DNA of 63,657 nucleotides, the filler included. It is 16 parts of 16 records of this genome, joined end to end, with 100 filler letters (N's around TTAATTAATTAA, not from the genome) between each part and the next. Parts side by side here need not be neighbours in the genome. Positions count along the whole stretch, not along the records: positions 18,194 to 21,677 come from SRR15195285_20064; 15 more parts are not named here. One strand, written 5' to 3'. Position 1 is the first letter of the stretch, and every line of letters starts with the position of its first letter. Below the pieces are notes generated by a model. The model searched no databases and had not been told where the DNA came from. It saw only the letters and a list, made by a program, of their open reading frames with translations. This document shows positions 5,422 through 53,047 of the stretch, piece after piece. The translations under genes were made by a program, and so were the position numbers.

Positions 5422-8400
5422 TGCGCCAATACGGCTGGCAGCTTCACCTGCACCTGTAATGCTGGATACACGGGGGACGGTCAGTCGTGCTGCTTTGGCT
5501 CATGCCCAATGATTGATGCAGTGCAGTTTAACTCGCCGAACCCGGTCATTGCGCGCGTATCTTCGAGACTAGTTATTGATGTGTCTGTTGTAATTCCACG
5601 TCCTACCACACTTCCTGTTGCAGTCCGCTGGAGCGCACTTTTCGTATCTGATGACACGCTGTTCCGTGACCAAGATATTGTTGGTTTTAACTCAACTTAC
5701 GTTGTGTTTCCGCCGCACTTTTTCCAGATTGGAACGTTCGATCTTGAAGTTGAGGTTTGGCTGCATGGCATACGGCATTCAGGTGCTACAAATGCGCTTC
5801 GAATCGTGTTCGAAGAGACACCTTACGTAACTGCAGTAGTTGCTGGTGGAAGCTACAGAACAGTCGATACAGCATCTTCGCTGGTGTTGGACGCATCAAA
5901 TTCTACAGACCCAGACGTAGATCAAGTCGTGTGGGATGCGATATCGTGGACGTGTGAGAATCGCACAGCATCTCCACCGCTGCCTTGTTGGGGAGGGATC
6001 ACTCCACCAGCAGGCACGGAAAGTAACGCAGCTTTGGTGTGGGACTTGACCAGACATATGCAACAGACTGGGATTACAGGATTACTGGCGTTTTCCATAA
6101 ATGTCACATCCGGTACACGTTCGGATACAGCGGTGGCAACAGTTGAGATTGTATCCGTGCCGATACCGAGGGTATCTATACCACACGTCCGTGACAAATA
6201 CAATGCCAACAGCCGCATTGTTCTCGAGAGCGTGTCCGTGCGCCAGACAGGTGCTGCTGACCCGAGCGTTTCCTTAATGTGGTCTTGCTGGCCGTGCACT
6301 GATGACACATGTGCCGCACCCGCCGCACCATTCAACATTGCTGCGTTGGTCTCTACTGAATTATCGAGCCCAGTTCTTGTCATCAAACCAGGATCATTGC
6401 TGCCAGGTCGCACGTATCGATTTGCCTTGGTTGGTAGCTCTGGACGTGCCAGAGCGCAAGTGCAAGTGGATATTGTGATTAACGGTTCCCCCAGTGCGGG
6501 TCAGGTTGCTGTGGCTCCACAGGACGGTAGAGCTGTGACCGATACATTTCAGTTGACTGCAAGCGGCTGGACAGACGAGGATGTTCCTTTGTCTTACAGT
6601 TTTGCAGTCGATGGCGGCATCTTCACGCAAGCCTCGTATTCTTTAGATGCTAGCACAGTGCTCCCCGAAGGACTTGAGTACCGTAATTTTGAACGCGACA
6701 TATCTGTTAGCGTGGCAGACTCGTATGGAGCAAGTGCCAGTGCCTCAACATCCGTCACGGTGAGGCCGTACGTTCCATCAGCCAATGATCGACTAGAAGA
6801 TGCTGCTACTCTCTTGACTGCTGCTTCGGCCGTTGGAAGCGTTCAAAACACCTTGCAGCTGGTAAATGCACTTGCGGCATCGATGAACGGCATCGTTGAC
6901 AGCACAGAGAGTACTTCAACACAGAGCTGGGAGGACAAGATGGCAACTAGGGAACTGTTGACGGACTCATTGCTGAGCGCAACGGTTTCCATTGCCACGG
7001 AAACAAATTCAGAGACACGAGAGAGTGTAATGGCTCAGATTTCGACCAGTCTCGTGGCTGTGACTGCCAGTCCCGACCAGATCAGTGACGCGAGCCTCCG
7101 CTCATCCTTGGAGTCTATCCTTCTCGTTGCAGCTTTTTCTGTGGATCCAGCTGCTCGAAGAGCTCGTGAGACATCTGTTGATGTATTATTGGTAGAGAAT
7201 TTGGCTACGGCCACGAGCAATCTCGTGCAGAGACAAGCGCTGTCATCATCTTCCATCACAAACGCAGCACAGGCTGCGCTGGCCTCTGCCGCAACTCTAG
7301 ATATTGTTGACCAGTTGAGCTCGGCTATTGTCAGCGCTGCCGTTCCTGGCGAGATTCCTGCAGTTGTAACCACGGAAACGTTTAGCATTCAAAGCCAGAA
7401 GAATCATGCTGGTGCTTTTGCAGGCTCGATGCTACCCATTGAGAGTGACCTTTCCCGTCGAACTTTGACTGAACACGGCATTAGTGTATTCGTGCCCGAC
7501 GGAGCGTTTGATCGAGGCCGTGGCAGAGAAGGCGACGGACCAATCGATGCTAAGCTGATTCAATGGGAGACAAATCCGTTCTCGTTTGCTGCTGCACCCA
7601 ATGCAACTGACATGGCGAATATCAGCCTCGGTACCCGTGTACTGAGCCTTAGTTTTGCGAACGACGATGGACCGCTCAAAATCCGCGACCTGCAGCAGCC
7701 GTTTGTTTTGACGCTTGCTCGTGCCGCAGACATCCCAGCTGCAGGTGATCTCGGCGTTCACGTTAGATGTGCTTATTGGAATGTGAGTCTGCAAGAATGG
7801 GTTTTTGATGACCACGCAGGCCCAGCGAACGTTAGCAACACCGATGATATCAGTTGTCCTTTCAACCATCTGACCAGTGTGGCAGCATTTGTCGGGTACA
7901 TCAATACTCCATGCTTCGACTGCTGGGAGCAGTTTGTAAACAATCCATACGCTTTGGTACTGTGCAGCATTCTTGGTGGGGTTCTGTGCTGCAACTGCAT
8001 TGTTGCATTCGCGCGGTTCTACAAGTACTATATTCTTCCTCCAGAGCAAATCATCTCAAGCAAGTACGCTCAAAAACGGCAAAGAGTAATGCTTCCCGAT
8101 GCGGAGGTCCGAACGACAACCCGCGAGGACTGCAGCTACTGGATTCGCGTCAAGACATCAACGGGCGGAATCTGCTGCCCAGTCCCCGGCGATCCATTCG
8201 ACAATACGCAACGCATGCTTGTCTTCGTTGCCACAGGGATCGTGTCAATGACTGCATCCATCTACCTGTTTCAGCCTCCTGGCAAAGATCCAGAGTGTTT
8301 GCTTATTTGTGACCAGCAAAATGCTGAGCAAGAGGCAGAATGCAAAGAGCAATGCAGCGCGCCCACTCAAAACGCTGTCGCGGCAATGTTGTTGAGCGCA

Positions 8401-9760
8401 GTGATCACGACCCCGATTATAATCTTGCTGGGAATGCTTTTCACGTGGTTGCACAATCCGGTGCGAGCGATGTCAGCCTTGCTGTGTCTTACGTCCAGCG
8501 TGTACTCTGTGGCGTGCCACGTTCTAACACTGGCTGCAACTCTGCTGGATTTATGATTGTGTATTGCAGGTGCAGCGTGCAACAACCCCCGAAGGAGCAT
8601 TCACGAGCATATTGGACTTGCTGAAACTTGTATATGAAACTAGCAAAGCTCAGGCCCGCTACCTCGCGGAGGTAGCTGCAAGTATCGCTAATGCTGTTGG
8701 TGCACTTGTCAACGACGAGCCTATCAGAGCACCCCTTGTATTCGTTGAATATCTCTCTTCTTCAGGTGTGGAATTGAGCAACAGTGTTCAGGATTGGCAG
8801 ATGCTAAACCAAAGTGTACCACAAAACAATGGGCGATCGGTCACGCACAGAGGTGATGATGTCCCAATCTGCGCAGTGGTGCCGTTCACTATGGACTGTG
8901 ACTCAGACCAAAGCCACACCGTGGAGTTTCATGTAGTCAATGCTCTGGGGAGCGTGGTCATGGTGGGAGTGACTGCGGTGGCGTATGATCCGACTGATTG
9001 GCGCCAAGAGGGCGACCTGCCGTCGTCTACTGAGCACGGATGGATGTGGCGTTCCGAACACGGTGCATGTCTGCACGATAGCGATTTTCGCAGCTGGGAA
9101 GGCCAAGAAGGGTACGAGACTGGCGATTTGGTCCGTTTAGAGCTGGCCGCAGGAACTCTTACTGCGTATAAATTGGGCGCTGGGAGTAGCGAGTGGTCGA
9201 AGCTGGGCACGCTTGCTGATGGGCTTACGGGCAGCTTTCGCTGGTGTGTCGAGCTACAACAACGTGGGGACACACTCAACATTAGTGGCGACATGGAGAT
9301 AAAGCAGGACGACACGCTTCAGCCTGACGACAAAAATGACGATGACACGAAAGACGAAAATCCGAGCCCACCCATGGTTGATAATTTTCAGTTGGCTGGG
9401 GAAGGGGAAGATGTGTCCCAGTTGCCTACTCCTCGACATCCATGCGCAAGTTTGTTGCCGCTCATCTATGGGCTCTTGGTAGGTGGAGCTGGTTTGTTCT
9501 TTATCGCTACGTTCGCCGCACGACTTGGGCCACAGAGTACGCGGCTGTGGCTTGTTTCTGCACTCGGATCGGTCGTGTTGAAGATTCTTGTCGTCGAGCC
9601 AGCGCGTATCTTTGCGTCGACCGCGCTTCTTAACGTGGCCGAGCGGTGCTGCGCAGATAGACTGAAGTTAGCTCGCAGCCGAAAAGGTGACGATCAAACT
9701 GGCAACGTGGGGGCCGAAGTTGGTACGAATGCGATCACGAGCATGGACTGGCCAGGGTAA
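5422..9760 (+). CDS. Polycystin-1/REJ-like membrane protein: EGF, REJ, GAIN/GPS, TM helices, SPRY-like domain; 5' truncated
   Basis: EGF (CANTAGSFTCTCNAGYTGDGQSC) at the contig start. REJ motifs (LVLDASNSTDPD, G.V.V.P..G.A..DTF..TASGW.DED.PLSY.F). GPS (CAYWN...W...SCPFNHLTSVA) at about 7768-7890. Intron 8461-8569. SPRY-like segment (VMVGV...GWMW...GYETGDLVRLEL..GTLTAYK) followed by two TM helices. Confidence 0.85.
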
Positions 9761-9941: not shown

Positions 9942-12900
9942 TCATTGCCCATCGCTGCGTTCCAATGTCCGCCGTTGGTCTTCACACCACACTCTCAGTA
10001 GTAAGCAACCGAGTAGCACACTACACCCTAAGAAGGCCAGCCATATTGACTCCCAGAAAGATAGTGGCGATAGACACCATATCAGATCAGCCACAACTAT
10101 CATGAACACCACCACAAGAGCCACCATCATCCCTAGGAAATCAAGACAGCAAAAAAGGCATTTGGCCTCAACTTCAAGACAGCGTCGTCCTGTGTGTTTG
10201 TTCTGTTCTATAAAGCGGCGTCTGCTCAAGTGAGTGTAATAAAAGATAGCTAGAGGTGGCGTCAGCCCTAAAGTCAACAGCGCCATTTGCGAATCAAACA
10301 TCGGGTAACCATTGGCATGGATGAGCGTGGGCAAGTATTTACACCACGTTATCAGCACGGTTGAGGTCGCAACTGGCACAATGATCCAATCGTGTAGCTT
10401 TGCCTGCATCTCAAGAAACGGCTGTTCTTGCTTCCTGATAATATACTCCATGTAGTGGAAGGAAGTATTTTCAGGCATGCTTGAGAGTGCCTCAATCTCC
10501 CGTTCTCTTCTCTTCATTTTGAATCGTGTGCCTAGCGCCAAACCCGCCGAGAAGCAGAAACACCCGTTAGCTTGGTCAAACCATTCCGCACGAAACGGCG
10601 ATTCTGGCGACATCAATGTGAACATCAGCCCGGTCAAGCTCTGAAAAACCTTGAATTGCTGTGCAGCTTGTTTTTCTTGCTGTACAGTGTCTTGTCCTTG
10701 CCGGGCGCGTTCAAGTTTTTCAAGGCCGTTTTGTTGGCGTTGCATGTCATTGGCCTCCGCACCAAAACGCCGCCGACGCTCCGCGGCGACTGAGTCGCCA
10801 TTGACAAGGTATCCAATCGGATTCCAAAGGAATCTAACCGGAGCCGTTGCAACATTATAGATGGTCCTAGGCCAACCATACCGAGCATGCTCTGCCTCCT
10901 CGCGCTCCAATTGCGTCCTTCTCTGCTCAAGACGCGCCGTTTCTGCAGCTATTCGATCATCGAATTCCTTTCTTATCAAAGCCGATTCTCGAGCAGCCAT
11001 TGAGCTCGTCTCGCCACACCACCGAGTGATAATGGCCATGATCTGAAACACAGCAAATGCAGGAAATATTCGTGCGGCCAGATCTGGATAGTTCAGTGAC
11101 ATCAAATCATGTTCGGCCAGCTCGTACTTTGTGTCGAGATCCGCGGCTACCGAACCCCTACTGGTAGCATTCAAGGTCCCATTTGACTCGGCAACCTTGC
11201 TCGATGCTATGAAGCACCCACAGTACTTCATGAAAAGATAGCACTGTACACACTCACTTCCAATGGCGAAGACCATCTGACCGCTCGAACCATACACAAC
11301 ACCCTCAAACAACTGCCGAATCCAAGGTTCGAGGACAAACACTCCAAATACTTCGTAGGCCGAAAACGAGTGATGCTGCAAATGCACCGCAAAAATCGTT
11401 TCTGCCAGATTGACTAGCTCGATCACAAATGTAGCGATGGAACCAGTCGTCGTAGGCCATACAAGCGCAACCGAGCTCAACACAGCCGATGCCATCATAG
11501 CCAAGCCAGCTGTCAACGGTGCCCTAGTCCATCCAAACTTGTGCCAGGGAATCATCCCTACCGTATCATGGATCCATGGGACGCCACCAACCATGTGATC
11601 AAACACGATTGCGACACCCACACTGAACCACAAGAGAAACAACGCGCCCAAAAGCAATGTGCCTACGCGGGTACATGAATCGGAGTCAACCGGTCGAACG
11701 GAGACGTGCTCGTCATCGTATCCTGTTGAGTACTCGTAAGGTGATCCATCGTCAACGCCACTCTCAATACGCCCGGGTGTCGAATAGTTGCCGGCTCTAT
11801 GTCTGTTGCCAAAACTCACAACCATTTCGAACGCCATCATCAGCCCGGCAATCATTGTCATGATATACCCAATAGCAAGCGGGAAAGGCATGACGCTTGC
11901 TACAAACCAGCCGCAAATGAGCGCGAAGCAGCTGACCAAGTCGAATATGACGATGATGTCTGTCAGTAGTCCCGCCAAGGATCTCATGTCTCCACCTTTC
12001 GACAAAACTGCCCGTTGAACAAACTTTGCTGGCATGCAAGTGTACATCAGCAAGAAGCTAGTGCCGCCGCTCATGATCTGTGTCGCCGAGGCTTCGCCGG
12101 TCGCCTCGCTGTCGGCATAACATGCATTGATATCAAGCAGGAAAACTGCCGGGTTTTGCACTGCAGCGGCGGCAATCAATGCTAGATATACGAGCTCTCG
12201 TACGCCGACAACCCATCCGAGTGCATACTGCCGGCTGTCGAGCTGGTAGCCGACGGTCCAGAACGCCCCGATGTACGCAAGTGGTTGCAGCACGTGCCAG
12301 AACAACAGCCGCCCAATAGTGCATGCCACCCCCAAGTGGGTCGATAGCCCAGCTCGGCTGCATGCATTAGTCCAGCTGGAGTCTTCGCGACATATGTATG
12401 ACATGTGCACTCCTTGGATTTCGATGACATCAGCGGCTGGTCTACTATCTTCCGTGACCGTGAGCTTAATTGTCTTGTCGGTGAACCATGAAAAGCTGTT
12501 GTCAAAAACGAACACGATTTTGCCTGGCTCAGCAGGCTTGTATTTCCCCACAACCTTCTTTGTTCTGCCTTCATTTTTGACTACTTCTTGCTCGTGGTTG
12601 CCATCTGGTGTGCACGTGCTTCTTTCAAAGCGTATTTCCATGCAACAATCCTGATCGCCCTCGACTTGGGCTGAGTAGGAACAACAAACATCTGCTTGGA
12701 GCAACCAAGGGATTGCAAGTGTATGCCCGTCAGTCTTGCGCGTGACCCTGATGGTTTCTGAATACGTTCGACCGTCAATCCAGTCAGGCATGCCATTCGA
12801 TTCCCCGTACGGATCGTCGCTATCGAAGCCATTCGATTCTCCTTGCCGATTGTGTTGCAACCTTGGTTCACGGTTGCAGCTGAAGACACGAGTGAGTAGC

Positions 12901-13550
12901 CGTTGACCAAGAACGCGGCCACAGTATGGTGCGAGTATAGCAACGAGTAGCAGCGCATGCACTGTCGACATACAGGGACCTTGTGGCGCGGGGCGGCGCA
13001 GGCACGGCGCCCACGGTTCCCAGCACTGCTCAAGGCAGGTCCTTCTGATCGCGCTTTGGGGATGCGCTGTGTCAGTGCCACAAGTCGCAGGCATTTCAAC
13101 AGGCTCCGTGCAGCCTGGAAAATGTGTGCGCGCCGTGGCGCCGCGACAATTTACCTCAACGCAGCTGTCACATGCCAATTGATTTGTGCGGAGGAAAGAT
13201 TTGCAGCAATCGCTGCACACGTTGCACTTCGCTGGTAGACACCGGTGAGGCGTTGTCGGCGGCGGCGCCGGACACAGCTCAGCCACGCATTGCGCGCACA
13301 CACCAGCAACTTCGTCGAAGCAGCACATGTCGCACGCCGTGCAGTTTGTGCTTGATGAACAAATCTGGGCGTGTGTTTCACAGCTGGCGAGCACCGCGAG
13401 CGTCACAACTGTGCAGCTGCGTGCGCCGCCGCCGGCGTCCCGCATCGCCGCCGGCCCCCGTCTGGGACTCATCATCTGGCGCTGGTCATGAGCAGGTCTC
13501 TTCGTCCGATGTCTCAACATTATGTCGATGAGCGTGATCTCTGAGGCCAC
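9942..13550 (-). CDS. Multi-pass membrane protein with N-terminal Cys-rich repeats, a GOLD-like domain and a coiled coil
   Basis: 1202-aa ORF (true start probably a downstream Met). GOLD C-terminal motif PGKIVFVFDNSFSWFTDKTIKLTV, many hydrophobic helices, and an E/R/Q-rich coiled coil. Confidence 0.7.
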   Translation of the reverse strand: MASEITLIDIMLRHRTKRPAHDQRQMMSPRRGPAAMRDAGGGARSCTVVTLAVLASCETHAQICSSSTNCTACDMCCFDEVAGVCAQCVAELCPAPPPTTPHRCLPAKCNVCSDCCKSFLRTNQLACDSCVEVNCRGATARTHFPGCTEPVEMPATCGTDTAHPQSAIRRTCLEQCWEPWAPCLRRPAPQGPCMSTVHALLLVAILAPYCGRVLGQRLLTRVFSCNREPRLQHNRQGESNGFDSDDPYGESNGMPDWIDGRTYSETIRVTRKTDGHTLAIPWLLQADVCCSYSAQVEGDQDCCMEIRFERSTCTPDGNHEQEVVKNEGRTKKVVGKYKPAEPGKIVFVFDNSFSWFTDKTIKLTVTEDSRPAADVIEIQGVHMSYICREDSSWTNACSRAGLSTHLGVACTIGRLLFWHVLQPLAYIGAFWTVGYQLDSRQYALGWVVGVRELVYLALIAAAAVQNPAVFLLDINACYADSEATGEASATQIMSGGTSFLLMYTCMPAKFVQRAVLSKGGDMRSLAGLLTDIIVIFDLVSCFALICGWFVASVMPFPLAIGYIMTMIAGLMMAFEMVVSFGNRHRAGNYSTPGRIESGVDDGSPYEYSTGYDDEHVSVRPVDSDSCTRVGTLLLGALFLLWFSVGVAIVFDHMVGGVPWIHDTVGMIPWHKFGWTRAPLTAGLAMMASAVLSSVALVWPTTTGSIATFVIELVNLAETIFAVHLQHHSFSAYEVFGVFVLEPWIRQLFEGVVYGSSGQMVFAIGSECVQCYLFMKYCGCFIASSKVAESNGTLNATSRGSVAADLDTKYELAEHDLMSLNYPDLAARIFPAFAVFQIMAIITRWCGETSSMAARESALIRKEFDDRIAAETARLEQRRTQLEREEAEHARYGWPRTIYNVATAPVRFLWNPIGYLVNGDSVAAERRRRFGAEANDMQRQQNGLEKLERARQGQDTVQQEKQAAQQFKVFQSLTGLMFTLMSPESPFRAEWFDQANGCFCFSAGLALGTRFKMKRREREIEALSSMPENTSFHYMEYIIRKQEQPFLEMQAKLHDWIIVPVATSTVLITWCKYLPTLIHANGYPMFDSQMALLTLGLTPPLAIFYYTHLSRRRFIEQNKHTGRRCLEVEAKCLFCCLDFLGMMVALVVVFMIVVADLIWCLSPLSFWESIWLAFLGCSVLLGCLLLRVWCEDQRRTLERSDGQ

Positions 13551-13816
13551 TGATCAGACGGTTCAGCACGCGTCCCATCTACCCTTCGTTCGTTGTGGCA
13601 GACGCCCGCATCTCCGAGAGGAGTCCTCCCGGCGCCAGCAGCATGCATGCGCACTCTGCTACAGTGCCGCCTCACCGCTGGGATTCCGACCATCCTGCTC
13701 GAGCAAAAAGTCCTTGGACAGCCATTTTCCAAGGATAATAGTACTTCAATAGTAATCCACACTACATGTACACGTACATATACAATACATATGTATTTGA
13801 ATACATACAGAGAGAC

Positions 13817-15076: not shown

Positions 15077-17605
15077 CTAGAGGTCGTTGTCCGTCGTGCC
15101 CCGCACCTGCGAGAGCAGTGGCCGCCTTTGCTCTCTCATCCTGCTGCCTCTCGAGCTCTGTCTCTTGGATTTCGATGGCTGATAAATCTCACCTTGCTGA
15201 CTTTGCTGCTGCTGCTGGTGTGTGGCGTCACGAGACCGCGCCGCGGCCCCCGTCCCTAGATCGCGTACTTGGCGAACACCAAGCGTGCCATTCGACCCCC
15301 GACTACCGTTGCCATAGATACCCGCCCGTCGGTAGTTTTGCTCGGCACGTGCATTAAACTCTCGCCGGTAGTCGAAGTTGTCGCCGGAGAACTGATTCTG
15401 ATCGCGACGGTAGTCATCGAGACCATGCGTGGCGTCGAATCCCACCGTGTGCCGCTTGAATCTAGGATTAGTGATCACCCGAGTGGAATTGTGATAGATG
15501 AGATATCTATCCAGCATGTACGCGCAAAAGAACAGCACCGTCGCAACCGCGTGCAGCCCGTAGCCAACAAACGCGTACGTAATAACACGCCAGCTCCTCC
15601 ATGACGTATTGAAGCAGTGATCATAGAAGAATATCGGCGCGTAGATCCCAGTAACGCCGCCGACGAGGTTGAACGCGGACTGAATCGACGCCTGCTCTGT
15701 CTGCGCAACTTGCATCGATATCATCGCAAATTGTGCCGGCCCGTAAATCGCATCGACGAATGGCCGGATCACCTCCTTTGTGATTGTACCAACCCACTTT
15801 GCCCAGAAGAGATCCGTACCCCAAGAGCCATCGCCTGTAGGACAGTATATCGCAGACAACAGCCACACACAACGAGCTGGTAAGTTATTGACGGACAAAA
15901 CATGACCACAGCAGCGGCTAGCAAGTCTGGACACCATGAGGATCGGCAGCACACACGCACCGCAAAGGGTGGAGCCCCAGCAATCGTAGTGATTCATACA
16001 CCAGATCGGCCACATATCGGCCAGAATGCCTATCACAATATGTGCACTATAACCCCAAAAGATGGCACGCCACACTCCAATCCGCGGGATGACGAATGCA
16101 GCAACGAGATTTGCAGGTATGCCGACACCCATTCTCACGAGGTGTGGGACAAGCATCTGCTCCTGTTTAAACTTGAGAGGTCCCATCCACAGCTGCTGAC
16201 CAGCAACTGTCATCATTCCACGGCTTGCGAAGCTGTTTATCGCTATTGATGGGACGATACCCACAAGGAGTGGGTACTTGAGCACCACTTTCACCGAGTT
16301 CCAGTAGTATCTGGTCAAGAATGCAATGGCGTGATCCGCACATACACAACATCCACAATAGTCAAGAGTCGTTTGCTGTTCAGAGAGATTTATGCTGGTC
16401 GGCCGTGGGCAGATTAACAGTCTAGCAGGCGTGCTACGTGTGCTTGGGTGAATAGCTCGGCACGTGGGTGTGCTTACGTCAGTGGGAGGAAATCCCAACG
16501 GTCTATCGGCTTCCTCAACTTGTCAGGCATAGACTCCGGCAAGAAAAAGAGGAAGAAGGCCAGGCAGACGAAGTCTGTAGAGAGCGAAATCACCCAGAAA
16601 ATGGTGTCTGGAAGCACGCGAACACAAATGAATGGACTCGGGGGCAAGCATGTGACGATAGGGCAGAGCACGATGCTGAACCAGAAATCAAGGCAACGGG
16701 CCAAAATGCGCACAATTGTCGAGGTGTGCTCGGAGCAGAGGGTAGCCGATGGCCGTCACAAGCAGCTGGCCTGGGATACCGAACAGCCCCAGAATCGGGA
16801 ATCCCTGCTCGCGCATATCAGTCGGGATCAGGTCCACCATCATCGCCATAAATGTTGGCCCGCTGCCACTCGCCATACCGCTCAACAGCGCCGAGGCGTA
16901 GAGCAGGTAAGCATCCGGATCGTGCCGGACGAACCAGGGCAGCGAGGAGAGGAGGTTGCAGACGATCGACTTAATGCCAAGTAGATGGCCGAAGAAAAAG
17001 ATTGGTTTGCGCCCCCGCTTGTCAGCGATACCCGCGCCGATCGGCATGAAGAACAACGACGTGAGCGTCAGGTACGATGACCTGCCGGCGTTGAGCTTAG
17101 TGGTGAAAGAGCGCACATACGCGAAGTTGGGGCAGTACACAGAGTGGCTCCACGATGGGTCGTCGCGCTTGAGGACTGGAACGTCACATGCCTTGATTTT
17201 TGAGACGTTCAGGTGGTAATTGTTGAACGTGTCCGGCCAGTGTACGTCGAAGTGTGAAGGGAGTGACTTGGGCGTCCCAGACTCCCCGCAGCAGCTCGTG
17301 CGCGAGTAGAAGAACGGCATCCCGACCTCGCCGTCAATGCCACCGTGGATGCCCATGACGATTCCGCACACTTGCAGGAACCACGTCATGCGGATGATTT
17401 CCGGTAGCCACTTGGGACCTCGAGGCTCTAGATTCCACTTCGCCCGCCACATCCGCGTCCACCAGCCCAAGCGCTCCTCCGCCTCCCAGTCGACCAGATC
17501 CACCGGCTTCTCGTCCCATAATACCTCGCCGTCATCAACCTTGCTGCGTTGGGGCTTCTTCTTGTCTGACGGCGGGCTCGTCTCCTCGGCCCGATAGTCG
17601 AACAT
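15077..17605 (-). CDS. Major facilitator superfamily transporter (TetA/MFSD14/SLC46-like)
   Basis: Motif A GAGIADKRGRKPIF, AMMVDLIP, FFLPESMP, ISMQVAQTEQASIQSA. Introns 16713-16608, 16478-16312 and 15960-15835. The 3' end may splice on to the Q/P-rich ORF at 14525-14731. Confidence 0.85.
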
Positions 17606-18193
17606 CGCAGTGGCAGGCGACAGCAGTCGAGTGGACGACAACGGACCCAGTCAATGCAACCGCTACTGAGCGAGTGAAGTGTGGGCAAATGGATGACGCG
17701 GCGACGCCACGACCACGATGACGCTCCAGTAGTACTCCCTGCGTTCCATGCACCATGATACGCGGAACCGGGAAGGGAACAAGCACGCTCTCATGGGCGC
17801 TGCTCGGCTCACCGCGGGGAAATGTGCCCCCACCCCTCCCCTCACCACCCAGAGGACGCGGTGCCGTGACGGATGTCGCGCACACTGCGCCTGCTCATAC
17901 GCGCGATACCGCAGTAGTACTGCGTACTGGTACTATGCGAGTACGACCTCAAGCTAGCTAGCTCAGAGGCAGATGCATGTAGTAGTACCAAGCAGTACAG
18001 CTGTACGTACCGAGTACCCAGCCAGGCTGTACCCAGGTACAGACTTAATCCGTCACGCGGAGCTGCAAGGGATCCGAACCTCACAAGCAGCAGNNNNNNN
18101 NNNNNNNNNNNNNNNNNNNNNNNNNNNNNNNNNNNNNTTAATTAATTAANNNNNNNNNNNNNNNNNNNNNNNNNNNNNNNNNNNNNNNNNNNN

Positions 18194-20823
18194 GTCTCTC
18201 CATCGGTCCACTTAACTTTGACCCCTCTGTCTGAGTAGGGTGGTGCGGTCAGTAGCGCACCAACTTTTCCGTTGTACTTGACGGCGGCGCCTTTCTCGCA
18301 CCAGTACGAGTCCGGAGTAGCTAGGTACAGTGATGTAAGCTTGCACACACGAATGCTTTGTGTCTTCCCGTACACGTTGCAGACTCCGTAAACGCCTGCG
18401 TCGCCTGGTAGTGAAATGGCTTTTTCGGTAATTTTCTTTCTCCCGCGCGCAGAGTTTCCATCCACCCAAACTTGGAAGCTGGCATCTGGAAAGAACGCCA
18501 CTTGGACACGTTGACCACTTCGCAAGCCTGCATTGTCGATTAGTGATGAGCCCCCAGTCGATAGCGACCACACGTCAGTTCCCACGGTGCCAAGATCACT
18601 CACATTCTCAGCGTTGGGAATTTTCGGCGCAAGCACGGACGGAAGACGCGTCGTGAAGCCCAGCTCAACGGCACCCGCAAAGTCGGCAGAGTTATCAAGC
18701 ACCTCGATTTCATATCTCCACGACTTATCGGGGCATGGAGTCAACGGTTTATCCAGCAGTGCGATCGCAATGTAGAAGCTGTCTGTACGAGTGGCGGTGG
18801 TGTTGCCGTCAGACAACGAGCAGTTGCGACCCGTGGTAATGTGGAACGTTGGGCATTCTTCAACCGGCTGTTCTGGCGCCTGTTCTGCCACCTCTCTTAA
18901 GTCGCGCTCCAGCCGCTTCGCTCTCCGGCAAGCATCTGACGCAGCCAGACGATCCGTCACTGACACCCTCAGCAGAGCAGAGACGAGAGGCCGAGATAGC
19001 CGCGGTATCCCCTCTTCTCGGTATCCCGCGTCAGTGTAAGTGGCAGGGTGCTCCATGTCACCAAACGGATCGGTGTCCACACTCGAGAGCAGCTCGAATG
19101 CTATCATTCCTGTCCCCCACTCGTCCGTCTTGGAGTAGTCGAGGAAGACATCTGGACCAGGCTTGGGTAGTACAACCTCTGGGGGCAGAGCAATTGGAGC
19201 TCCACCACGGCGGATACCATCGTAGGGCATAGGAACGCGACAGCTGACGATGCGGTTCTTGGTCAAGTCCAGGCACATCCCAAAATCTGTGAGCACGGCC
19301 GCTTCACTTTCTGCACCAGGGTTTGCGATCAGGACATTGTCTAGCTTGACGTCGCGGTGGACGATTCCGTGTTGCTTCAGATGACGGACAGCTTTCAGCA
19401 AATCGTGGACGATCTTTACTGCTCGCAGCTCTCCGAACGCGCGTCCCTGTTGCCGCGTCCGCTTGTAAACTCGTTTCAGATCGTCGGCGAAGTACGGCAT
19501 TATGACAAACAACGTGCGAGGGTTGACGATGTCGGCCTCGAAGTCCCAGGAGGGTAGGCCCGTGGCGTCGTCTGTGAATGAGTGCAACACTACCATGACA
19601 TGGCGATGCGCGGGGAGGCGTTCCGGGTCGGAAAGCAGAGCCGTTTCTGCATCGAATTCCTCAGTGATGGCGGTGGAGTTGGCCGTGTCTCCCATGTTGA
19701 GCATGACTTTGATCGCGAGCTGGACAGGAGGACCACTGCGTGGCTGTGCAAGGTACACGTAAGAACAGACTCCGCTCTGCGAGATTGATGAGCTCCTGCC
19801 GCCTCCAGCCGTGAGGTCCTTGCCACCGACCTTTTTGATAACCTTGAAATCCGCCAGCTTTTTGCTAACCAGTTGTGCGCGCATCGTAGCGGTCTGCTCC
19901 TCCGCCTCTCGATCGACCGACGTATCGGCTTCCTCGACGCGGAGGATCAGATGTAGCTCGCTTGCGTTCTGACAATTATAGTCCTTCAACGACATGTGGT
20001 CTTCCAGTTCTCTGCCGGCGAAGATCAAGCGGCAGGCAGAAACATCCAGGCTGGCAGAAGTTGCGATGCTAGATCGCAATTGAGCGACAGTGGTGGAGAT
20101 GCCATGATCTGCTTGGACCCGCAGTGTACCTCCGTCCGGAGTCTTGACCCACAACTCGATTTCGGCTGCGGGAACGGGAGACGGCGCTGGTGCAGGAGCG
20201 GGGGTGGGGGCGGGAGCGGGGGCGGGAGCGGGAGCGGGAGCTGGAGCTGGAGCTGGAGCTGGCGCTGGCGCTGGAGCGGCGGGGGCCGGGGGTGGCGCCG
20301 GAGCAGGATTCGGGTCCGGTTGTTGTGCTGGTACGGGAGCGGGAGCTGGCGCCGGCTGTGGCTGGTGTTCTGGCGGGACAGCTTCCTCGTCGATCGCCTC
20401 CCCTGCCAGGAACAGCTCTGGGAACGAGATGACCCCGTCCCTGTCAACATCCATGGCATCAAATTGGTCCGCGATGGTGCCCCCTGCTCGAGCGCGCATC
20501 TTGTCTGGCGGAATCCGCATGCACTCGACACGACTGAGGTAGCCATCCTGGTCCTCATCGAAATCCACAAAGAGCGCGAGCATTTTTAACAGCTCGTTCA
20601 GCTTCTGGAGCGCTCGGTTCCGCAGCAGCAGTTTCCTGCGAGGCGTTTTAGGGAGCGCTTCGAGCACCTCTCGCAGCTTCGTGTCATGCCCTTCCTCGGT
20701 ATCGATGCAATCGCCAAAGTCCGAGAGGGAGGCCACCTCCAACTCCTCGAGGCACGCCGCGAAGGACGGGATGGCCACCAGGTCGGAGAGCTCCGCCGGC
20801 CACGCGTCTGCAGAGCCGTCCAT
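18194..20823 (-). CDS. EF-hand / Pro-Ala linker / ubiquitin-like / PINK1-like Ser/Thr kinase / Neuralized(NHR)-like protein; 3' truncated
   Basis: Intronless ORF. EF-hands DEDQDGYLSRVE and DVDRDGVISFPE. Ubl at 20160-19939 (RLIFAGRELED..SLKDYNCQNASELHLILR). Kinase motifs LAIK, HRDVKLDN (HRD at 19359-19351), DFG and LPPEV. NHR-like FH...GRNCSLSDGNTTATR...VYGVCNVYGKTQSI. Confidence 0.9.
20165..20360. repeat. Coding hexanucleotide repeat encoding a (Pro-Ala)n linker
   Basis: GGAGCT/GGAGCG/GGCGCT units on the + strand, read as PAPAPA on the - strand. Confidence 0.85.
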
Positions 20824-22493
20824 GTGGCACTACTAGTGGGCCCACCAGGGTGCGGTGCAGGCACCAAGGTCCTTGGTGGAGGATTTGCCGTCCCTACTAA
20901 ATATATGCAGCTGGCCTCTCTTAGTAGAGTGAAGAAAGCACCCAGAAACGAGTGCTCACACCCAGAAGCACGAGCGTCAACGCCCGGCTCGAAGACCTGT
21001 GGTGACAGAGCCAGAGCGGCAACGGCGCCCCTGCTCACGCAGTGCTAGGCCGCTCCTCACCCACCCCTACCCGATCCTCCTCAGCCACACCACACCCAGA
21101 CGCAAAAGACCACACCCCGAAAGCCCAGAAGCACGGGCCCACTGCCAGCACGAACCCCTAAAGACGAGAAGGGGAAAGCCCGAACCCAGGCTCCCTCGCC
21201 AACTGTCAGGTGGCTGACGGTGACTGACGGAGCCACCGACCCTCCAGTCCCACAACTCCAAAGGCCCCACCCCGCCCCACCCCGCCCCCCCTATAGACTA
21301 GGAGAGCAGAAGGCTAGCAAGGGCAGCAAGGGTAGCTAGCCCGCGGATGCACGGGTCGGGACCCCACCACGCCTCCGCGGCACCGTCCCCTCGCCGGAGC
21401 CGCACAATTTTCCATGGCCACGTAGTCCAGCACACAGACTTTCTGTTTCTCGATCATATCTCAGATTCTCAGTCCCCTCCCTCCCTCACATTGTACCATA
21501 GATTGTTCTTTGTTGCATTCTGTTCCCGAGCTCTCGTGTCTCGACCGGCTCAGGGAAGTGGCTGTGCACCTGTGCAGTCCGCTGTGGACCGTACCGGTCT
21601 GTGGTCGATTGTCCGGCGGCAGAGACGGATCGAACGTACAGCTGTACAGTACTGTACATTTGCCTTCGTCTGACATANNNNNNNNNNNNNNNNNNNNNNN
21701 NNNNNNNNNNNNNNNNNNNNNTTAATTAATTAANNNNNNNNNNNNNNNNNNNNNNNNNNNNNNNNNNNNNNNNNNNNTGGCCGACGTGATACAGCGGTAT
21801 TTTCGCGATTTTGAGGCACTTAAGAGATGAGATATGTGGTTTGGTGCGTCACCGTAAATGTCATTCAGTTCAAACTTTCCAGCTTTTCGACCTATTCGGC
21901 ACCGCGCAGACAGCTGTTGATCTCATTCCATTCAAAAATTACAGCTGGAGCGATATGTTTATTACTGCAGACGGTAGGACGGTGGGAGACGGTGGGAGAG
22001 CTGGGAGGACCCTATGATTGTTCCTCCGGGTATGTATGCACGAACTGTAGATCATGAGGGTGAGAGTACAGAGGTAGACTGCGCACACGTACAACCGTAG
22101 CGGATTAGGGGTGATGATTTCGACCTGGAAGGTCTCCTCGGGCCTCACTAGCGCTGTGTGTGTCGAGACCTTGGCCGCTACCGGGCAGCATGATCAATCC
22201 GGCACTCCTAGATCTAAAAGTACAGATGCAAACAGCCAGCGAGTAGATGAGCGCCACGCCGATGAAGAAGATGCGATTCGCGCGTAAGCAGCGTTGAAGA
22301 CTCTCGTCTTGCCATTGGTATTGTTTGCCATAACAGCAGTAGCAACATTTTGATCGCTACTGGACAACTAGCAGTTGGTGCACGGTGGCATCTTGCCGTT
22401 CGCTATGCAGTTCATTTCGTATGGCCCTGAACTTTGAGCAGCATGCGCTCTTTGTGCCCATGGCACTACTGCGACAAATGGTTTGTTCTCGAT

Positions 22494-40567: not shown

Positions 40568-43500
40568 TTACACGCTAAACGTCGCGCAATCGAACCCAGA
40601 TTCGCGCAAGAAACGCAGCACAGTGCCCTCTTGCAGCTCCGCGCCGCCTGGGTCGTGCCAAGACGATGCTTTCGTTTGCTTGTTGAAATAGAACGGGTGA
40701 TTGTTTTGATCTTTCATCTCAACCCAATCGTCCGCTGCCACGGCGACAAGCACCTCCCTCAACTGCGCCGAGGAAAGAGAATCGACATGATCACGTTGTT
40801 GCAGCAGGTCAAATCCGTCCTTGAACAGTGCCAGAATCTGTTCTTGGTCGTGGCGAGTTGTGTGGCCGCTGTGAGAACTGGTTGAGACCCACCACATCGC
40901 GAATTCTAAGTATGACACACGGCCACTTTTGTCTTCATCAATCGAGGTGAATACATCTTGAACAGACGTCAGAGAGCTTGCAGTCACCTGTGCTTGATCT
41001 CGGTCCCGCCCCTGGAAATCGTGTGGTGACCTAGCAAATGTCAGCTTTATAGGGCGCGCTTTTGTCATCCGCAGGACGTCAGCTAGACGTCCTTGGCTCA
41101 AGTGTCCGAGGATATCATGTTCGTTGGCATCTGTCAGCAAGTGCCCTTCACGCACACCCCCGAGTGCCGCTGGACCATTTTCCTCGATGTGGGATACCTC
41201 GACCATGCCAAAATCTGCCAAAGAAGGGTGGTGAGTTTCAATTAGATCCATACCGAGTGGACCACGATCAAATTGTACTACACATGCCGTGTGAAGCCGA
41301 TGCCGGACCATCGCAAGGTGGCCGATCGCCTGAGGGGCGTGAGGCATATCGGCTACCATGCTTTGCAAAGTTGGGTGTTTTGCATGCATGTACCATGCCT
41401 GGAACATTCGACTCAGCACCTCTTTCTCATATTGTATCTGCGTATCCGCTTCCACAATATCACGAAGTGGATTGGTCGTCAACCCGTATGGCTCAGCATC
41501 GAGACGTTTGAACCCCAGCTTCTGGTAGGGTCTTAAAATGATGCAGGTCGCCACCAGCACCCCACCAAGCAAGGAGCTGCCGATACATGCCGTCAAGAAG
41601 GTAGTCATGTCTGTTCCCTCAGAGCACGTTGCACCTCGGTACTCCCCGCAGGCTGCTCGATAGATGCTGTTCCTGCTCTCAGAGTCATCAACCCCAGCGT
41701 GGCATGCAAGACACTCAGTCCCATTGGGGCTGTAAAATCCATCGCTGCAAGTTGTGCAGGCGATACCACTTTCCGGTGCCATACCAGGAGGACATACCTC
41801 ACATAGCGAGACATCTGAATGAGAGAACATACCAGCGGGGCATGGCACACATGCCATGCTATTTTCAGTGATGTTTGTGGTGTTGCTCGTGGGCGCTGCC
41901 ACGTGATGTGGCTGTAAGCCTGGCGCACAAGTGTCCCATGTATGCGTACTCGCATTGTAAATCTGGTGAGCTTGCCCGGGCTCACACGAAGTTCGCTCGC
42001 TATTAGCCTTCGTGTGAAAAGGACACGGAACACACTGCAAGCCATCCTGAGAGCGACGCAAAGCAGTCTCAGCCAACGGGAGCAGCAACTGAATGGAAGG
42101 CAGGCAGAAAACACGGCAGCAAAATAGCACACAATGGAGACATGGGCATCATACCGGTGATATCCGATTACCTTGGCACTTTGAGCAGCCTGTCTCTGTT
42201 CTCTCATAACCGACCCGGCATTCGCGACAGTAGTTCCTCTCTGTAGTCGCGTTGAAATTGGCTCCGTCGTCTGCACATATCGTACATGCTGCAGCACCAG
42301 CGAAAGGCAAACTCACATGGGTAGACCCGAATCTCATTGAGCACACTCCTGGTGACGCTACAAAATCCAAAAAACCACTCATGCTGCATGGTAAGCAGGC
42401 ATCATTATACGGCTGGTTCGCGACCCAGCCGTCAGGGCAAGGCTCACAGTGGACCAGATCGGTAGTCACCAAGTCCTCTGCACAAAAAATGCAGTTGGTT
42501 TGATTAACGTCAGCAATCTGACCCCTCTCACATTGCAAACACTTTGCGCCCGAGCTTACGGTCCCGGGAGCACACATGACACATGCAGACATCGAAGGAC
42601 TTGGCTCTGTGCCACCAGGACAGTCCATGCATGTGTGCTGAGTATTGCTTGAGCTGTATCTTCGAGAACACGGGACGCACGACCGGTCATCCCAAGCAGG
42701 TTCTGTGCCATTGGCACAGGGCACACATGCCCTGCCATTGGACGATACGTGTCCCAAAGCACAGCTGTGACAGCCTGTTCGGTTGTCAAATGGCTGTTTG
42801 CCAGGTTCACATCTAGTACAGATTGAACCGTCGCTTATCTTCTCGTCGATGCAGTCGATACAGGCCGTCCAGTCACTGCTGGGCTCTTTTCCACTGGGAC
42901 ACTGTGTACACGGACCTCCATCTGGCGACACGTATCCCCCACCGTGCGTAGTACAATCTCTACACGCAAATCGAAACTCGGCTGTCGTCGGTTCCTTTCC
43001 GGCAGGACAGGACTGGCAAACGCGTCCATCTGGGCTGAATAGTGTCGCCTGATTTGACAGTTGGCTTGCACCACAAGGCAAGCAGGTGCTATGCTCTGCA
43101 TTGACCTCTGATCCTGGTGGACAAACCTCGCACGATTTTCCCTCCTCTGGCGAGCCTTCGGTGTTGAATTTCCCCTCTGGGCACCGCTCGCACGAAGATG
43201 CACCCGTGTAGCTTGAAGGGTATTGTCCTGCGGGACATTTCTCGCACCGACGTCCATCAGTGCTAACCTCCATTTCACACTTCTTACATTCAGTTGGGCC
43301 ACTGCTTACATTCGTCGAATGCGGACCCGTCGTTGTCGGTTCGTAACCTGGTGCACACAGTATACAGTTGCCACCGTCCAGAGAATAGGTCTCGGAAGAA
43401 CAAGGTTCACACGCTGACCCACTTGTGTCAACCTGCTTTCCAGGCGGACAAGTCAGACACGTGCCGTCAGCCGGCCCGCCCAAACACGCCTGGCACCCAA

Positions 43501-43763
43501 CGCTCCCGACATAATCCTGGTACGGAAGTGCAATCTCATTCAAGCCACATTCTGCACAGGGAGAGCCATTGATTGACATTTTCCCAGGTGGACAAACTTC
43601 GCACACACTGCGATCTCGACGAGACGGCAAGCTGCTCCAAAATGCTGATTCCTCTGGGAAGCTTCGGACTTGTACTTGCTTTCCAGGTTCACAACGAACA
43701 CATGGACCGCCATCGATGCTGACCTCGCCTGATTCGCAATCCACACAGCCTGTACGATCGTCC
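40568..43763 (-). CDS. Single-pass receptor-like protein: GCC2/GCC3 (ephrin-receptor-like) Cys repeats, TM, PDZ, EF-hand, WW; 5' truncated
   Basis: Many C..C..G...S.DG..C repeats; intron 42154-42047; TM; PDZ (GPLGMDL...GPAALGGVREGHLL); EF-hand (DEDKSGRVSYLEF); WW (WVEMKDQNNHPFYFNKQTKASSWHDP). Confidence 0.85.
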
Positions 43764-50342: not shown

Positions 50343-53047
50343 TTAGTGTAGCAGTGGGATACTGCCGATCCGGAGTGGCTGCGCCATGGTGTAGTCCCAA
50401 TCGATGCCCTTTTGCGCCTTACAGCTACAACCCGGCTTTGGTGCGCACGCTCGAACGGGGCTCACGCCGTTGTACAAATGAGTTGGTTGCCCACGGCCGT
50501 TGAAGAGCAGTTTTGGACGCTCACGCGTTGAGAAAATATGCGTGCTCCCGTCTTCGAATACCACCTCGTTCGTGTATGGAGATACGTTGGTAGTAAACCA
50601 CTCTTGACCATTGCGACTGAACATTTGGGCACTCACAAGCGGCGATTCGCATGCTCCGCAGGGCGTCGTTGAGTTGTATGCGTGGACGATCACATGCCAG
50701 TGGCCGCGGCCGTCAACGTAAAGGTAGGGATCTTCCCACACACCCATCCCCGTGCCCCCACACCGTTTCGGCCCACAGCCTTGGGGTACCCGGCCCCATT
50801 TCTCCCAGGGCCCCTCTAGCTTCGGCGCTTTCAATATGTCCCACCAGCCACTGCCGCACAGCAAATACCACGACTCATTGTGCCACAGCGGCGCCGGGTT
50901 GATGCATGTAAAATTGAGCATCACCTTCTGCCATGGGCCCACCGGATAGGCGGAGAAATGGACGGTCACATTCGGCCAATCACCCACGTGCTGCTGGGAT
51001 CTGGACACGGGCACCGACGGAGAGCAATTGACGAGTCCCCCTCCATTTGGAACACCATCCCCGATGTGGAACAGGACAAAGTTGGGCGGCGTGCCGTCCG
51101 AAAACGTTTGGAGCACCACTTCTGGGTTGTGAGCCCAGGGCGGCAATGCGACGTCGTGTTTCTGGAAGGGCCCCAACGGGGTGATGGCAGTAGCATGCAC
51201 AATTTGGCTGTTCGCACCCCACGCGGACAAGCCACAGCCATTGACAATCTCCGAGACGTAAAGGTGATACTCTCCTTCGAAAAACACGGCATTCCCGCCC
51301 CACGACGTGACATTGGGTGCCATTCCATACGCGCCAACTCGTGGCGCTGGCAGCACGTCAAGCTCGCCACAGGTCGGCCCTTTCCACGGCGTATCACACA
51401 CGCAGGCGCCTTCTTGCAGATCGCATACACCATTCAGAGTGCAGTTGAGGTCATCCGTGCAAACCACGGTCGCCGAGGTGCTGCCCATAGTGTGCCGCTC
51501 CATTTGGCCGTCGGTTTGGTAGGCATCGTCGTCAGTTTTGAGGGTGATGGCTGACGTCCAGCTTGAGCAGTCCAACTCCACCGTTGCTTTGCTCCACTGA
51601 CGTGTGAACTTGCCGCTGCCAGGCGCCGTCTCTGCGCAGACCCCTTGAGGCACTCCGTAGTCGGTCTTGAGGGCGGGTGGGAATGTGTAGTTTAGCGGCA
51701 GCAAGTGTGGACCACCGCGGCCGAAGTCGCCGATGCAGCTTATCCAGGAGTAGCCGAACCAGGCGAAAGGTCCACGAGCCAACAGGAAGGCGGCCAGCGA
51801 CTGCTCGAACGAGACGATGTACTTGAACGGCGGGTAGTCGTGATTGCGCTCAATTCCATAGAGCAGCGGTACGTGCTGCAGCGTCGAGTTTTCAACGCAC
51901 GCTGTCTCGCGGAACCATTTGGTACAACTTGCAGCATTGCCTTGCGCGAACGGTGGCCCCTGCAGCGTGCCGGAGTTGTAGAAGAGCTGCCAATTGAAGG
52001 CGCCTTGCTGGATGGTGTACTTCTGAACAGCTGCCATATTGGCCGCCCAACCAACCTGAATGTCCTTGACGTCGGCTGGTGAGAGGCCGGTGTCGTGGAC
52101 GCAGCCCGGATCGATCTCGCTGGGGCCACTGCCCCAGTCATCCTGCACACACAAGAGAGTGAGCCAGCAGTAGCAGGTCAATGAGCGAGGCCATGAGCGA
52201 CTGCGCACGTCTATGAATATACCGCTGATGTTTGGGTTGCCAATTCCTTCGGGGCCACCGATGTACGTGTGGACGAGCCAGTCCTGCAACATGGAACCAT
52301 TCCTGCAACAGACACGTGGGTGGGCACAAGCAAGACGAGTGCCAAGCATGCATCGGGTGTGGAAGTATCCATCCGTTGGGAACAACTTTACCTGTGGTCG
52401 AACACGTACTCTCCGCAAGGGATTGTGCCGCAGTCACATAGCTGGTCGCAGAATTGTGTCGGGTCCGGCTTTCCGTTGAAAGTGGGGTGAAACTTCATGA
52501 CACCGGGCGTGCAGGTCGGTGGCGGTTTGGCGACCGCGCAATACGCCTTGGCCTGGGGCGTCTGGCGTTGATCATGGTACAGATCGCTGCAGAGCTGCGT
52601 CTTGTTAGGCCGGTGCTCGTCGCAGTTTGGTGCCACCGCTGCGTGTGGCTGCGCCGCAGAGTCGAATTTCAGGAACCAGCCAGAGTATGCGGGGTCTTGG
52701 AGCTTCTCGCGCACGCTAGCGAGCCACGGCAGCGCCTTGACCAGGTTGCGGTACACGAAAAACTGTGTCTGTGGGTTCAGGGCCTTCAGCGCCGCGGCCT
52801 GCCAGACCATCAGCCCCGACGAGTCCATTGGGTGCTGATTCGCCCAAACCCCTTTCATGTGCGACCAGTCGATGTCCACTATCCCAAACTGCGAGAAAAA
52901 GGCGGGGTCGAGTGGGCCCGACGTGTTGCAGGGCATCACAATCGTGCTCAGGGACATGTTGTACGTCGGCGCCCACTTCGGCAGGGTGGGCACGTTGTGG
53001 CGCGGCAGCGGTGGCGTGGGTGCTGCTGCTGCTGCTGCTGCTGCTGC
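50343..53047 (-). CDS. Two-domain putative glycoside hydrolase: GHL15/GH168-like barrel, then EGF-like and GH43-like beta-propeller; 5' truncated
   Basis: Domain 1 has DWS, VYRNLVKALPW, GIFIDD, LAAFLLARGP.AW.GY.W and FTRQWSKATV.LDC. Linker LKTDD. Then C.LNG.C...C.C...W.G..C, SWGG, YHLYVSE, HNP, EDPYLY and RERPKL. Introns 52391-52303 and 52208-52143. Confidence 0.75.

Follow-up and report, generated by a model that had tools for sequence, protein, structure and literature searches.

Is the phosphorylation of ubiquitin at Ser65 confined to animals? To our knowledge PINK1 is the only established ubiquitin kinase, and in animals it phosphorylates Ser65 both of ubiquitin and of the ubiquitin-like domain (Ubl) of Parkin. 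The question is raised by a gene found in a 63,657-base stretch of DNA, here called the window, which is composed of 16 contigs of 3.0-5.8 kilobases (kb) each, linked by N44-TTAATTAATTAA-N44 spacers (e.g., at 18094-18193 and 21678-21777). Because the contigs are separate and spacer-joined, adjacency of genes inside the window does not amount to adjacency in the genome. On the contig at 18194-21677, a single frame encodes a Ubl together with a protein kinase resembling PINK1, and we are highly confident of the identity and architecture of this product. An initial annotation of the locus had proposed that an enzyme and its substrate are fused here. Reading the Ubl-kinase fusion as an enzyme-substrate pair, or as an autoregulatory unit, is plausible from the sequence; it suggests that ubiquitin phosphorylation may occur outside animals.

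The stop-free frame lies on the minus strand, where it spans 880 codons between 20829 and the end of the contig. The start codon (20823-20821) is the first ATG; an in-frame TAG (20832-20830) lies just upstream, and the start methionine coincides with the N-termini of homologues P0003, P0004, P0014 and P0015. The whole coding region (18194-20823, minus strand, as are all features of this gene given below) remains open at its 3′ side, where it is cut by the contig end and the linker, and the window protein is therefore truncated at its C-terminus. Homologue P0029 runs about 300 amino acids (aa) past the point where the window protein ends; a length-restricted homologue search found no relatives of 1541-4400 aa, which counts as weak evidence. 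From the N-terminus onward, the frame encodes an acidic domain, a pair of EF-hands, a Pro-Ala linker, the Ubl, the kinase, a Neuralized repeat and an SH3-like tail.

The kinase domain (aa 325-645; 18895-19857), delimited with Pfam, PDB search, Foldseek, VIA-align and MAFFT, matches Pkinase (PF00069) over aa 370-631 with 56.4 bits (cut-off 31.7). Its catalytic set is complete, comprising the catalytic Lys374 (19710-19708), the His-Arg-Asp triplet at 491-493 with Asp493 encoded by 19353-19351, the Asp-Asn-Val motif and the DFG motif at 515-517 (19287-19279). Judged by these residues, the kinase is predicted to be catalytically intact. A PDB sequence search with this domain returned 367 distinct matches at E≤0.001. 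PINK1 of human, Tribolium and Pediculus takes up the first 12 places (74-81 bits; E 8e-22 to 1e-19). The 13th match, Greatwall, represents the next family and scores 42 bits. These figures bear out the initial claim that the kinase is PINK1-like beyond generic motifs, and the six pairs of matching motifs put forward at that time are all recovered when the kinase is aligned to human PINK1 chains by HMMER and to dog and turtle PINK1 by MAFFT. The PINK1-type features that are kept include the P-loop cysteine, the VAIK-region motif, the beta4-beta5 insertion and, in the PINK1-type activation segment (19287-19177) and the loop that follows it, DFG-x-C-L, RGG and PGP...DYSK; the unusual motifs of the activation segment and of the alphaEF-alphaF region are retained. 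The insertion between beta4 and beta5 is an insertion-3-like loop (aa 422-437; 19519-19566), placed by alignment with dog and turtle PINK1. When 1.84 billion representatives were scanned by HMMER with no more than the kinase domain as query, 4767 matches had E≤1e-3, of which 354 reached ≤1e-10 and 53 reached ≤1e-30; P0108, a lizard PINK1 by its source name, ranks 87 of the 150 listed, with 97 bits.

The predicted fold points to the same relationship. An AlphaFold2 model of aa 221-660, built from an 88-row alignment, has a mean predicted local distance difference test (pLDDT) score of 91.5 and a predicted template modeling (pTM) score of 0.86; the insertion-3-like loop is ordered in this model (pLDDT 91-97 in the block of model residues 201-220). 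When the model was compared with the PDB using Foldseek, ranks 1-24 were all occupied by PINK1 (E 3e-19 to 9e-15), followed by Aurora C (1.4e-13). The best VIA-align match is PINK1 bound to ubiquitin (6eqi_C; Z 28.9, root-mean-square deviation 3.3, 302 aligned residues) and the top 14 rows are PINK1, generic kinases coming next, with CDK2 at Z 25.4 and about 257 aligned residues. The greater length of the PINK1 alignment (302 against about 257 residues) results from shared insertions, and the margin in Z is modest, as expected among kinase folds. On these grounds of sequence and model, the kinase is specifically PINK1-like, and PINK1 is its closest known relative.

In maximum-likelihood trees, the window kinase falls in a clade of 35 rows with a support of 99 in the Shimodaira-Hasegawa-like approximate likelihood ratio test (SH-aLRT), or of 45 rows (98) upon addition of partial Ubl-bearing rows. 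Vertebrate PINK1 (P0258, P0188 and P0199) belongs to a separate clade of 20 or 19 rows (SH-aLRT 97), whose members carry a 55-130-residue tail past the kinase, as expected of the C-terminal region (CTR). Five long-branch rows (P0093, P0106, P0136, P0150 and P0160) were left out of the 45-row tree and of the tree with outgroup. In the latter, 71 PINK1-like rows, vertebrate PINK1 and the window protein included, are split from 10 generic kinases with SH-aLRT 100 and a branch length of 1.12. The grouping with PINK1 expected from the initial annotation thus holds against generic kinases, but not down to the vertebrate-PINK1 clade, outside of which the window kinase stands. By sequence, its clade is a protist clade, sister to the one holding vertebrate PINK1. 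A search of metagenome contigs with the protein as query found no relative; with an alignment as query only the generic HRD motif was used, and ordinary kinases with 22-36% identity were retrieved, eight of which served in the outgroup. A protein-atlas search returned generic kinase clusters only and no useful taxa.

True orthology of the window kinase to PINK1 was considered and rejected, the protein being placed in a separate protist clade beside that of vertebrate PINK1. The orthologue reading also fails on account of the missing mitochondrial targeting and membrane part, insertion-2 and CTR of animal PINK1. An N-terminal mitochondrial targeting sequence, an outer-membrane signal and a transmembrane segment are among the features of PINK1 listed in the accessible part of PMC8828467. 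By residue composition and hydropathy, the window protein has neither a mitochondrial presequence nor a membrane segment: its first 40 residues contain no Arg or Lys and 9 Asp or Glu, and the top 19-residue Kyte-Doolittle mean across the protein is 1.42. Homologues likewise keep the N-terminus as a soluble domain plus EF-hands. A separate case is P0086, a protein of 1016 residues with two kinases, one generic (aa 249-461) and one PINK1-like (aa 653-956), which forms a long branch adjoining the animal PINK1 clade.

Upstream of the kinase, as initially annotated, and in the same minus-strand frame lies the Ubl (aa 224-299; 19933-20160; PF00240, 1e-10). The Pfam match covers aa 228-297 with 41.7 bits (cut-off 25.4), and the best PDB matches are ubiquitin, single ubiquitin chains giving E values of about 1e-11. 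AlphaFold2 predicts the strand and helix pattern of a beta-grasp fold (pLDDT 88-95). The alignment with ubiquitin proceeds without gaps from Arg42 past Arg72 and sets Ser290 (codon AGC, 19962-19960) opposite Ser65, exactly as the initial annotation had it. Also as first described, the Ubl has no C-terminal GG: it ends in LILRVEEAD and continues into a linker. GG is found in none of 21 aligned Ubls of the family. The domain must therefore be an integral, non-cleavable part of the protein and not a modifier. Among the Ubls fused to PINK1-like kinases, the Ser65-equivalent is invariant (37 of 37). Only four other columns are conserved at 95% or above, Arg42 (35/36), Gly47 (36/36), Leu50 (36/36) and Arg72 (35/36), and those flanking the serine are variable. 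Of the usual binding patch, the Leu-Ile-Phe-Ala-Gly stretch is conserved in the family and Leu8 is not. The Ubl is joined to the kinase by a 25-residue linker (19858-19932), identified by conservation among homologues and predicted by AlphaFold2 to contain a helix at aa 307-320 (model residues 87-100; block pLDDT 83-98). The linker motif is conserved across homologues, its length and sequence being kept within the inner clade described below, and 72-97 residues separate the Ser65-equivalent from the catalytic lysine in the 28 proteins listed.

Is the pairing of Ubl and kinase a recurrent one? Relatives were gathered by a word-indexed search (30) and a representative search (140). A profile of the family Ubl finds the domain in 37 of 171 proteins, many of which are fragments, and 32 rows of the 45-row kinase clade bear it. 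In an inner clade of 29 rows (SH-aLRT 99), the Ubl precedes the kinase envelope by a few residues in 27; the other two sequences, P0017 and P0018, start within the kinase domain. The Ubl is thus a regular companion of this kinase with a conserved serine, as opposed to a random partner, in line with the initial annotation. Its placement in the kinase clade takes at least four forms: adjacent and N-terminal in the inner clade, 28-50 aa upstream of the kinase in P0066 and P0053, some 270-280 aa upstream in P0164 and P0045, and, in P0057 and P0038, C-terminal of the kinase. P0053 and P0057, whose kinases are sisters (SH-aLRT 100), have the Ubl at opposite ends, which implies domain shuffling or independent fusion. 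So varied a placement suggests that the attachment of a ubiquitin fold to this kinase has been selected for repeatedly, and a substrate or ligand relation would account for it more readily than a fixed structural buttress. If the fold is indeed a substrate of the kinase, the repeated and differently arranged ubiquitin fusions would be a "Rosetta stone" record of this enzyme-substrate pair.

A fusion seen in an assembly of short contigs (3-6 kb) could be an artefact, either a chimeric contig or two adjacent genes read as one, and a low-complexity stretch at 20168-20279 lacks read support because repeat words were skipped in the matching of read words. We consider this explanation so improbable as to be negligible. 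The frame runs through five domains without a single stop, and the Ubl-linker-kinase order is found in 27 of the 29 inner-clade rows, which come from separate assemblies. The contig shares words with 19 public runs from 15 studies, nearly all marine or seawater metagenomes, and DNA contigs from two independent studies bridge the junction between Ubl and kinase (X2, 19740-20167; X1, 19502-20024). In addition, the EF-hand part is connected to the Ubl in the same manner in homologues whose linkers are not repetitive. A chimeric contig was rejected as an explanation on the strength of the bridging contigs and of the recurrence of the fusion across assemblies, which exclude a chimera for practical purposes. 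A metatranscriptome library (X13) also contains contig pieces of the gene, with no internal joints, which is not proof of transcription. The gene is genuine, consists of a single exon and comes from a marine protist. Five of the relatives bear single-cell genome labels (COSAG02, COSAG04, SAG31, SAG11 and SAG22), the others being from marine metagenomes; as far as the accessible part of bioRxiv 10.1101/2025.05.06.652364 goes, these labels are picozoan. Among named relatives, the proteins encoded in picozoan single-cell genomes come nearest.

The remaining modules of the protein flank the Ubl-kinase pair. At the N-terminus, a conserved acidic domain (aa 3-75; 20605-20823) corresponds to a block common to P0003, P0004, P0005, P0012, P0014 and P0015. 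It is followed by the EF-hand pair (aa 84-140; 20410-20580), recognized by Pfam as EF-hand_5 (30.5 bits; cut-off 25.9) and EF-hand_1 (29.5 bits; cut-off 25.4). Both loops are canonical 12-residue loops of the Asp-x-Asp-x-Asp-Gly type, and they are predicted to bind Ca2+. The Pro-Ala-rich low-complexity linker seen in the translation (aa 156-222; 20164-20364) is encoded by the hexamer tandem repeat at 20168-20279 (period 6, 18.7 copies according to Tandem Repeats Finder); the corresponding linkers of homologues are unrelated and of other lengths. On the other side of the kinase, a single helix leads into a Neuralized homology repeat (aa 662-829; 18343-18846), which stands in place of the CTR. 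It matches PF07177 with 54.1 bits (cut-off 23.3) over positions 1-148 of the 149-position profile and is 61% identical to the equivalent part of P0029. The last 49 residues (aa 830-878; 18196-18342) form the first SH3-like tail module, cut by the contig end and recognized by alignment with P0029, which repeats this module and has a Mind bomb SH3 repeat (PF18346).

Across the family, the partner domains include the Neuralized repeat, MIB_HERC2, ZZ, SPRY, Mind bomb SH3, WWE, PARP, FYVE, TPR and LRR. They are recognition modules of ubiquitin-ligase and ADP-ribose signaling; no RING, HECT or RBR domain was seen in the family members examined, most of them fragments. Individual combinations include a near-ubiquitin, Big_5, kinase and WWE series in P0045, a kinase followed by a PARP catalytic domain, with no Ubl, in P0028, and Ubl, kinase and FYVE in P0020. 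P0045 and P0028 hint at a link to ADP-ribose signaling.

What, then, might the window protein do? The explanation that we favor, and whose overall chances we hold to be evenly poised, is that it would be a soluble multidomain signaling protein, whose PINK1-like kinase would recognize the ubiquitin fold and phosphorylate its Ser65. The built-in Ubl would serve as a tethered substrate, or as an autoregulatory element, at Ser290, which could be phosphorylated within the molecule or between two copies. As no import signal is present, the activity would be gated by an input other than mitochondrial import, most plausibly by Ca2+ acting through the EF-hands. Recruitment to targets would fall to the Neuralized and SH3-like modules at the C-terminal side. 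Taken by itself, the proposed Ser65-kinase mechanism is a strong possibility, though we would stop just short of calling it probable. We are more tentative about its general form, namely that Ser65 phosphorylation might not be an animal invention tied to mitochondrial damage, and that marine-protist PINK1-like kinases, picozoans included, might carry their own substrate, act in the cytosol under the control of Ca2+ or of partners, and feed recognition modules of the ubiquitin-ligase type.

Instead, the Ubl might play a structural or allosteric part, in the manner of the ubiquitin-like domains of IKK-beta and TBK1, and be required for the kinase to fold, to be active or to position its substrates; Ser65 of the Ubl would then never be phosphorylated, and the substrates would be other proteins reached via the C-terminal modules. 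We regard this as unlikely. It finds support in the AlphaFold2 model, in which the two domains form a compact unit and the linker helix is ordered (pTM 0.86; linker blocks pLDDT 75-98), in the conservation of linker length and sequence throughout the inner clade, and in the fact that the PINK1 autophosphorylation column is not Ser. A fixed buttress, however, is expected in a fixed place, and the relatives have the domain adjacent to the kinase, far upstream behind another domain or at the C-terminal side. A purely structural role would also leave without explanation an invariant exposed serine, at the very position that the nearest kinase family phosphorylates; ubiquitin with a Ser65-to-Ala change folds normally, which likewise argues against such a role. 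Less probable still would be a generic docking module for the proteasome or for UIM or UBA proteins, in a family belonging to the ubiquitin-ligase pathway; the likeness to PINK1 would then reflect common descent only and say nothing of the substrate. The association of ubiquitin-ligase and ADP-ribose domains in this family (Neuralized, MIB_HERC2, ZZ, SPRY, Mind bomb SH3, WWE, PARP and FYVE) and the conserved Leu-Ile-Phe-Ala-Gly patch are consistent with docking. Yet it is His68 and Leu8 that are not conserved, and Ser65, Arg42 and Arg72 that are. Moreover, in this data set the Ubl follows the kinase clade, not the variable partner domains.

Several observations weigh against phosphorylation of the ubiquitin fold by this kinase. 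Ser65 is an ancestral residue of ubiquitin, and its retention is for this reason weaker evidence than first appears; since several of the fused Ubls hardly differ from ubiquitin, the 37 of 37 is partly a matter of inheritance, and the hidden Markov model that detected the 37 was built from the same family. The RLIFAG/His68 patch pointed out in the initial annotation is there in the window protein, but its histidine is not a family feature, the relatives having H, N, M or Y at position 68. The kinase also departs from PINK1 in places. Insertion-3 forms the ubiquitin-binding site of PINK1; in the MAFFT alignment, the insertion-3-like loop of the window protein falls short of its counterparts in dog and turtle PINK1 by about 10 residues. 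Insertion-2, which follows alphaC, is absent, the window clade being gapped opposite to it in a 19-sequence alignment. The CTR, which in PINK1 packs with an N-helix, is absent as well, structural alignments to louse PINK1 stopping at residues 489-497 of 575; the helix in the Ubl-kinase linker (aa 307-320) may or may not correspond to that N-helix. Where PINK1 has its autophosphorylation serine (Hs Ser228, Ph Ser202), the aligned residue of the window protein is Ala383, and its relatives have Ala, Asp, His or Tyr. According to the accessible part of PMC8828467, autophosphorylation of the PINK1 N-lobe is a prerequisite for ubiquitin kinase activity and orders insertion-3. Two residues past Ala383, a MAFFT alignment of 19 kinase domains reveals a conserved Ser/Thr position, Ser385 (19675-19677), and the alignment of this loop may be off by two. 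Finally, the trees are quick maximum-likelihood trees, assessed by SH-aLRT and without bootstraps, and their outgroup, made up of P0031, P0169 and the eight metagenome kinases, is mostly unnamed. As this outgroup is also small, the assignment of the kinase to PINK1, as opposed to another kinase group, rests mainly on the PDB comparisons.

A six-frame scan of the other 15 contigs found no second kinase or Ubl, and Pfam analysis of 10 large open reading frames of the window found no ubiquitin-system gene. One frame, of 1924 codons, occupies a whole contig (43865-49636, plus strand), is open at both ends and has the EsV-1-7 cysteine-rich motif as its sole Pfam match. A frame of 1044 codons (5422-8553, plus strand) encodes an EGF fragment and then a REJ domain (160.9 bits), which we take to be an animal-type polycystin/receptor-for-egg-jelly module, here on a protist contig. 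Two successive long frames at 40571-43762 (minus strand) contain ELAPOR1-like TNFR and NCD3G cysteine-rich repeats, with a WW domain in one of them, and a frame at 56869-59049 (plus strand) has a paired amphipathic helix repeat of the Sin3 type (PAH) and a weak WW match. Frames of 410-1203 codons at 9945-13553, 15080-16522 and 50346-52433 (minus strand) and at 8528-9757 (plus strand) have no Pfam match at E≤1e-4.

In the full-text literature, subscription journals, supplements and listings of domain architectures not being covered, no PINK1-like kinase from outside animals and no Ubl-PINK1 fusion were found. An evolutionary analysis of PINK1 (bioRxiv 10.64898/2026.09.05.749644), in the part of it that is accessible, deals with 48 metazoan orthologues only. 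If the proposed mechanism is true, the origin of phospho-ubiquitin signaling would move outside animals, and the activity of a ubiquitin kinase would prove connectable to different inputs, here the EF-hands. The family would also provide compact proteins with tethered enzyme and substrate, suited to the biochemistry and structure of a kinase reaching a serine within a folded domain. Should the Ubl be a structural partner only, these proteins would still constitute an expanded set of kinases resembling PINK1, undescribed so far, in a protist lineage not yet in culture.

Comparison with known systems sets out what is shared and what is particular to the window protein. With the Neuralized and Mind bomb E3 ligases it shares, together with its paralogues, the Neuralized repeat and the SH3-like or MIB_HERC2, ZZ and SPRY domains; unlike in those ligases, the modules are carried by a kinase, and no RING was seen in the members examined, mostly fragments. 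In IKK-beta and TBK1, a ubiquitin-like domain is packed beside the kinase, which is reminiscent of the ubiquitin fold and kinase in one chain, and of the compact unit predicted here. There, however, the Ubl comes after the kinase and is not known to serve as a Ser65 substrate, whereas in the present family most members have it ahead of the kinase, its placement varies among relatives and the kinase is PINK1-like. The Ubl itself resembles ubiquitin and the Ubl of Parkin in its fold, in having Ser at 65 and in keeping Arg42, Ile44, Gly47 and Arg72; as in Parkin it is an integral domain without GG, but it resides on the kinase polypeptide and not on a ligase. Animal PINK1 remains the nearest known protein by sequence, by unbiased database search and by predicted fold, with intact catalytic residues common to both and the P-loop, VAIK-region, beta4-beta5 and activation-segment features described above. 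The window protein differs from it in belonging to a separate clade, in having no presequence or membrane segment, no insertion-2 and a shorter insertion-3, in bearing a Neuralized repeat where PINK1 has its CTR and Ala at the autophosphorylation column, and in possessing EF-hands and a Ubl of its own.

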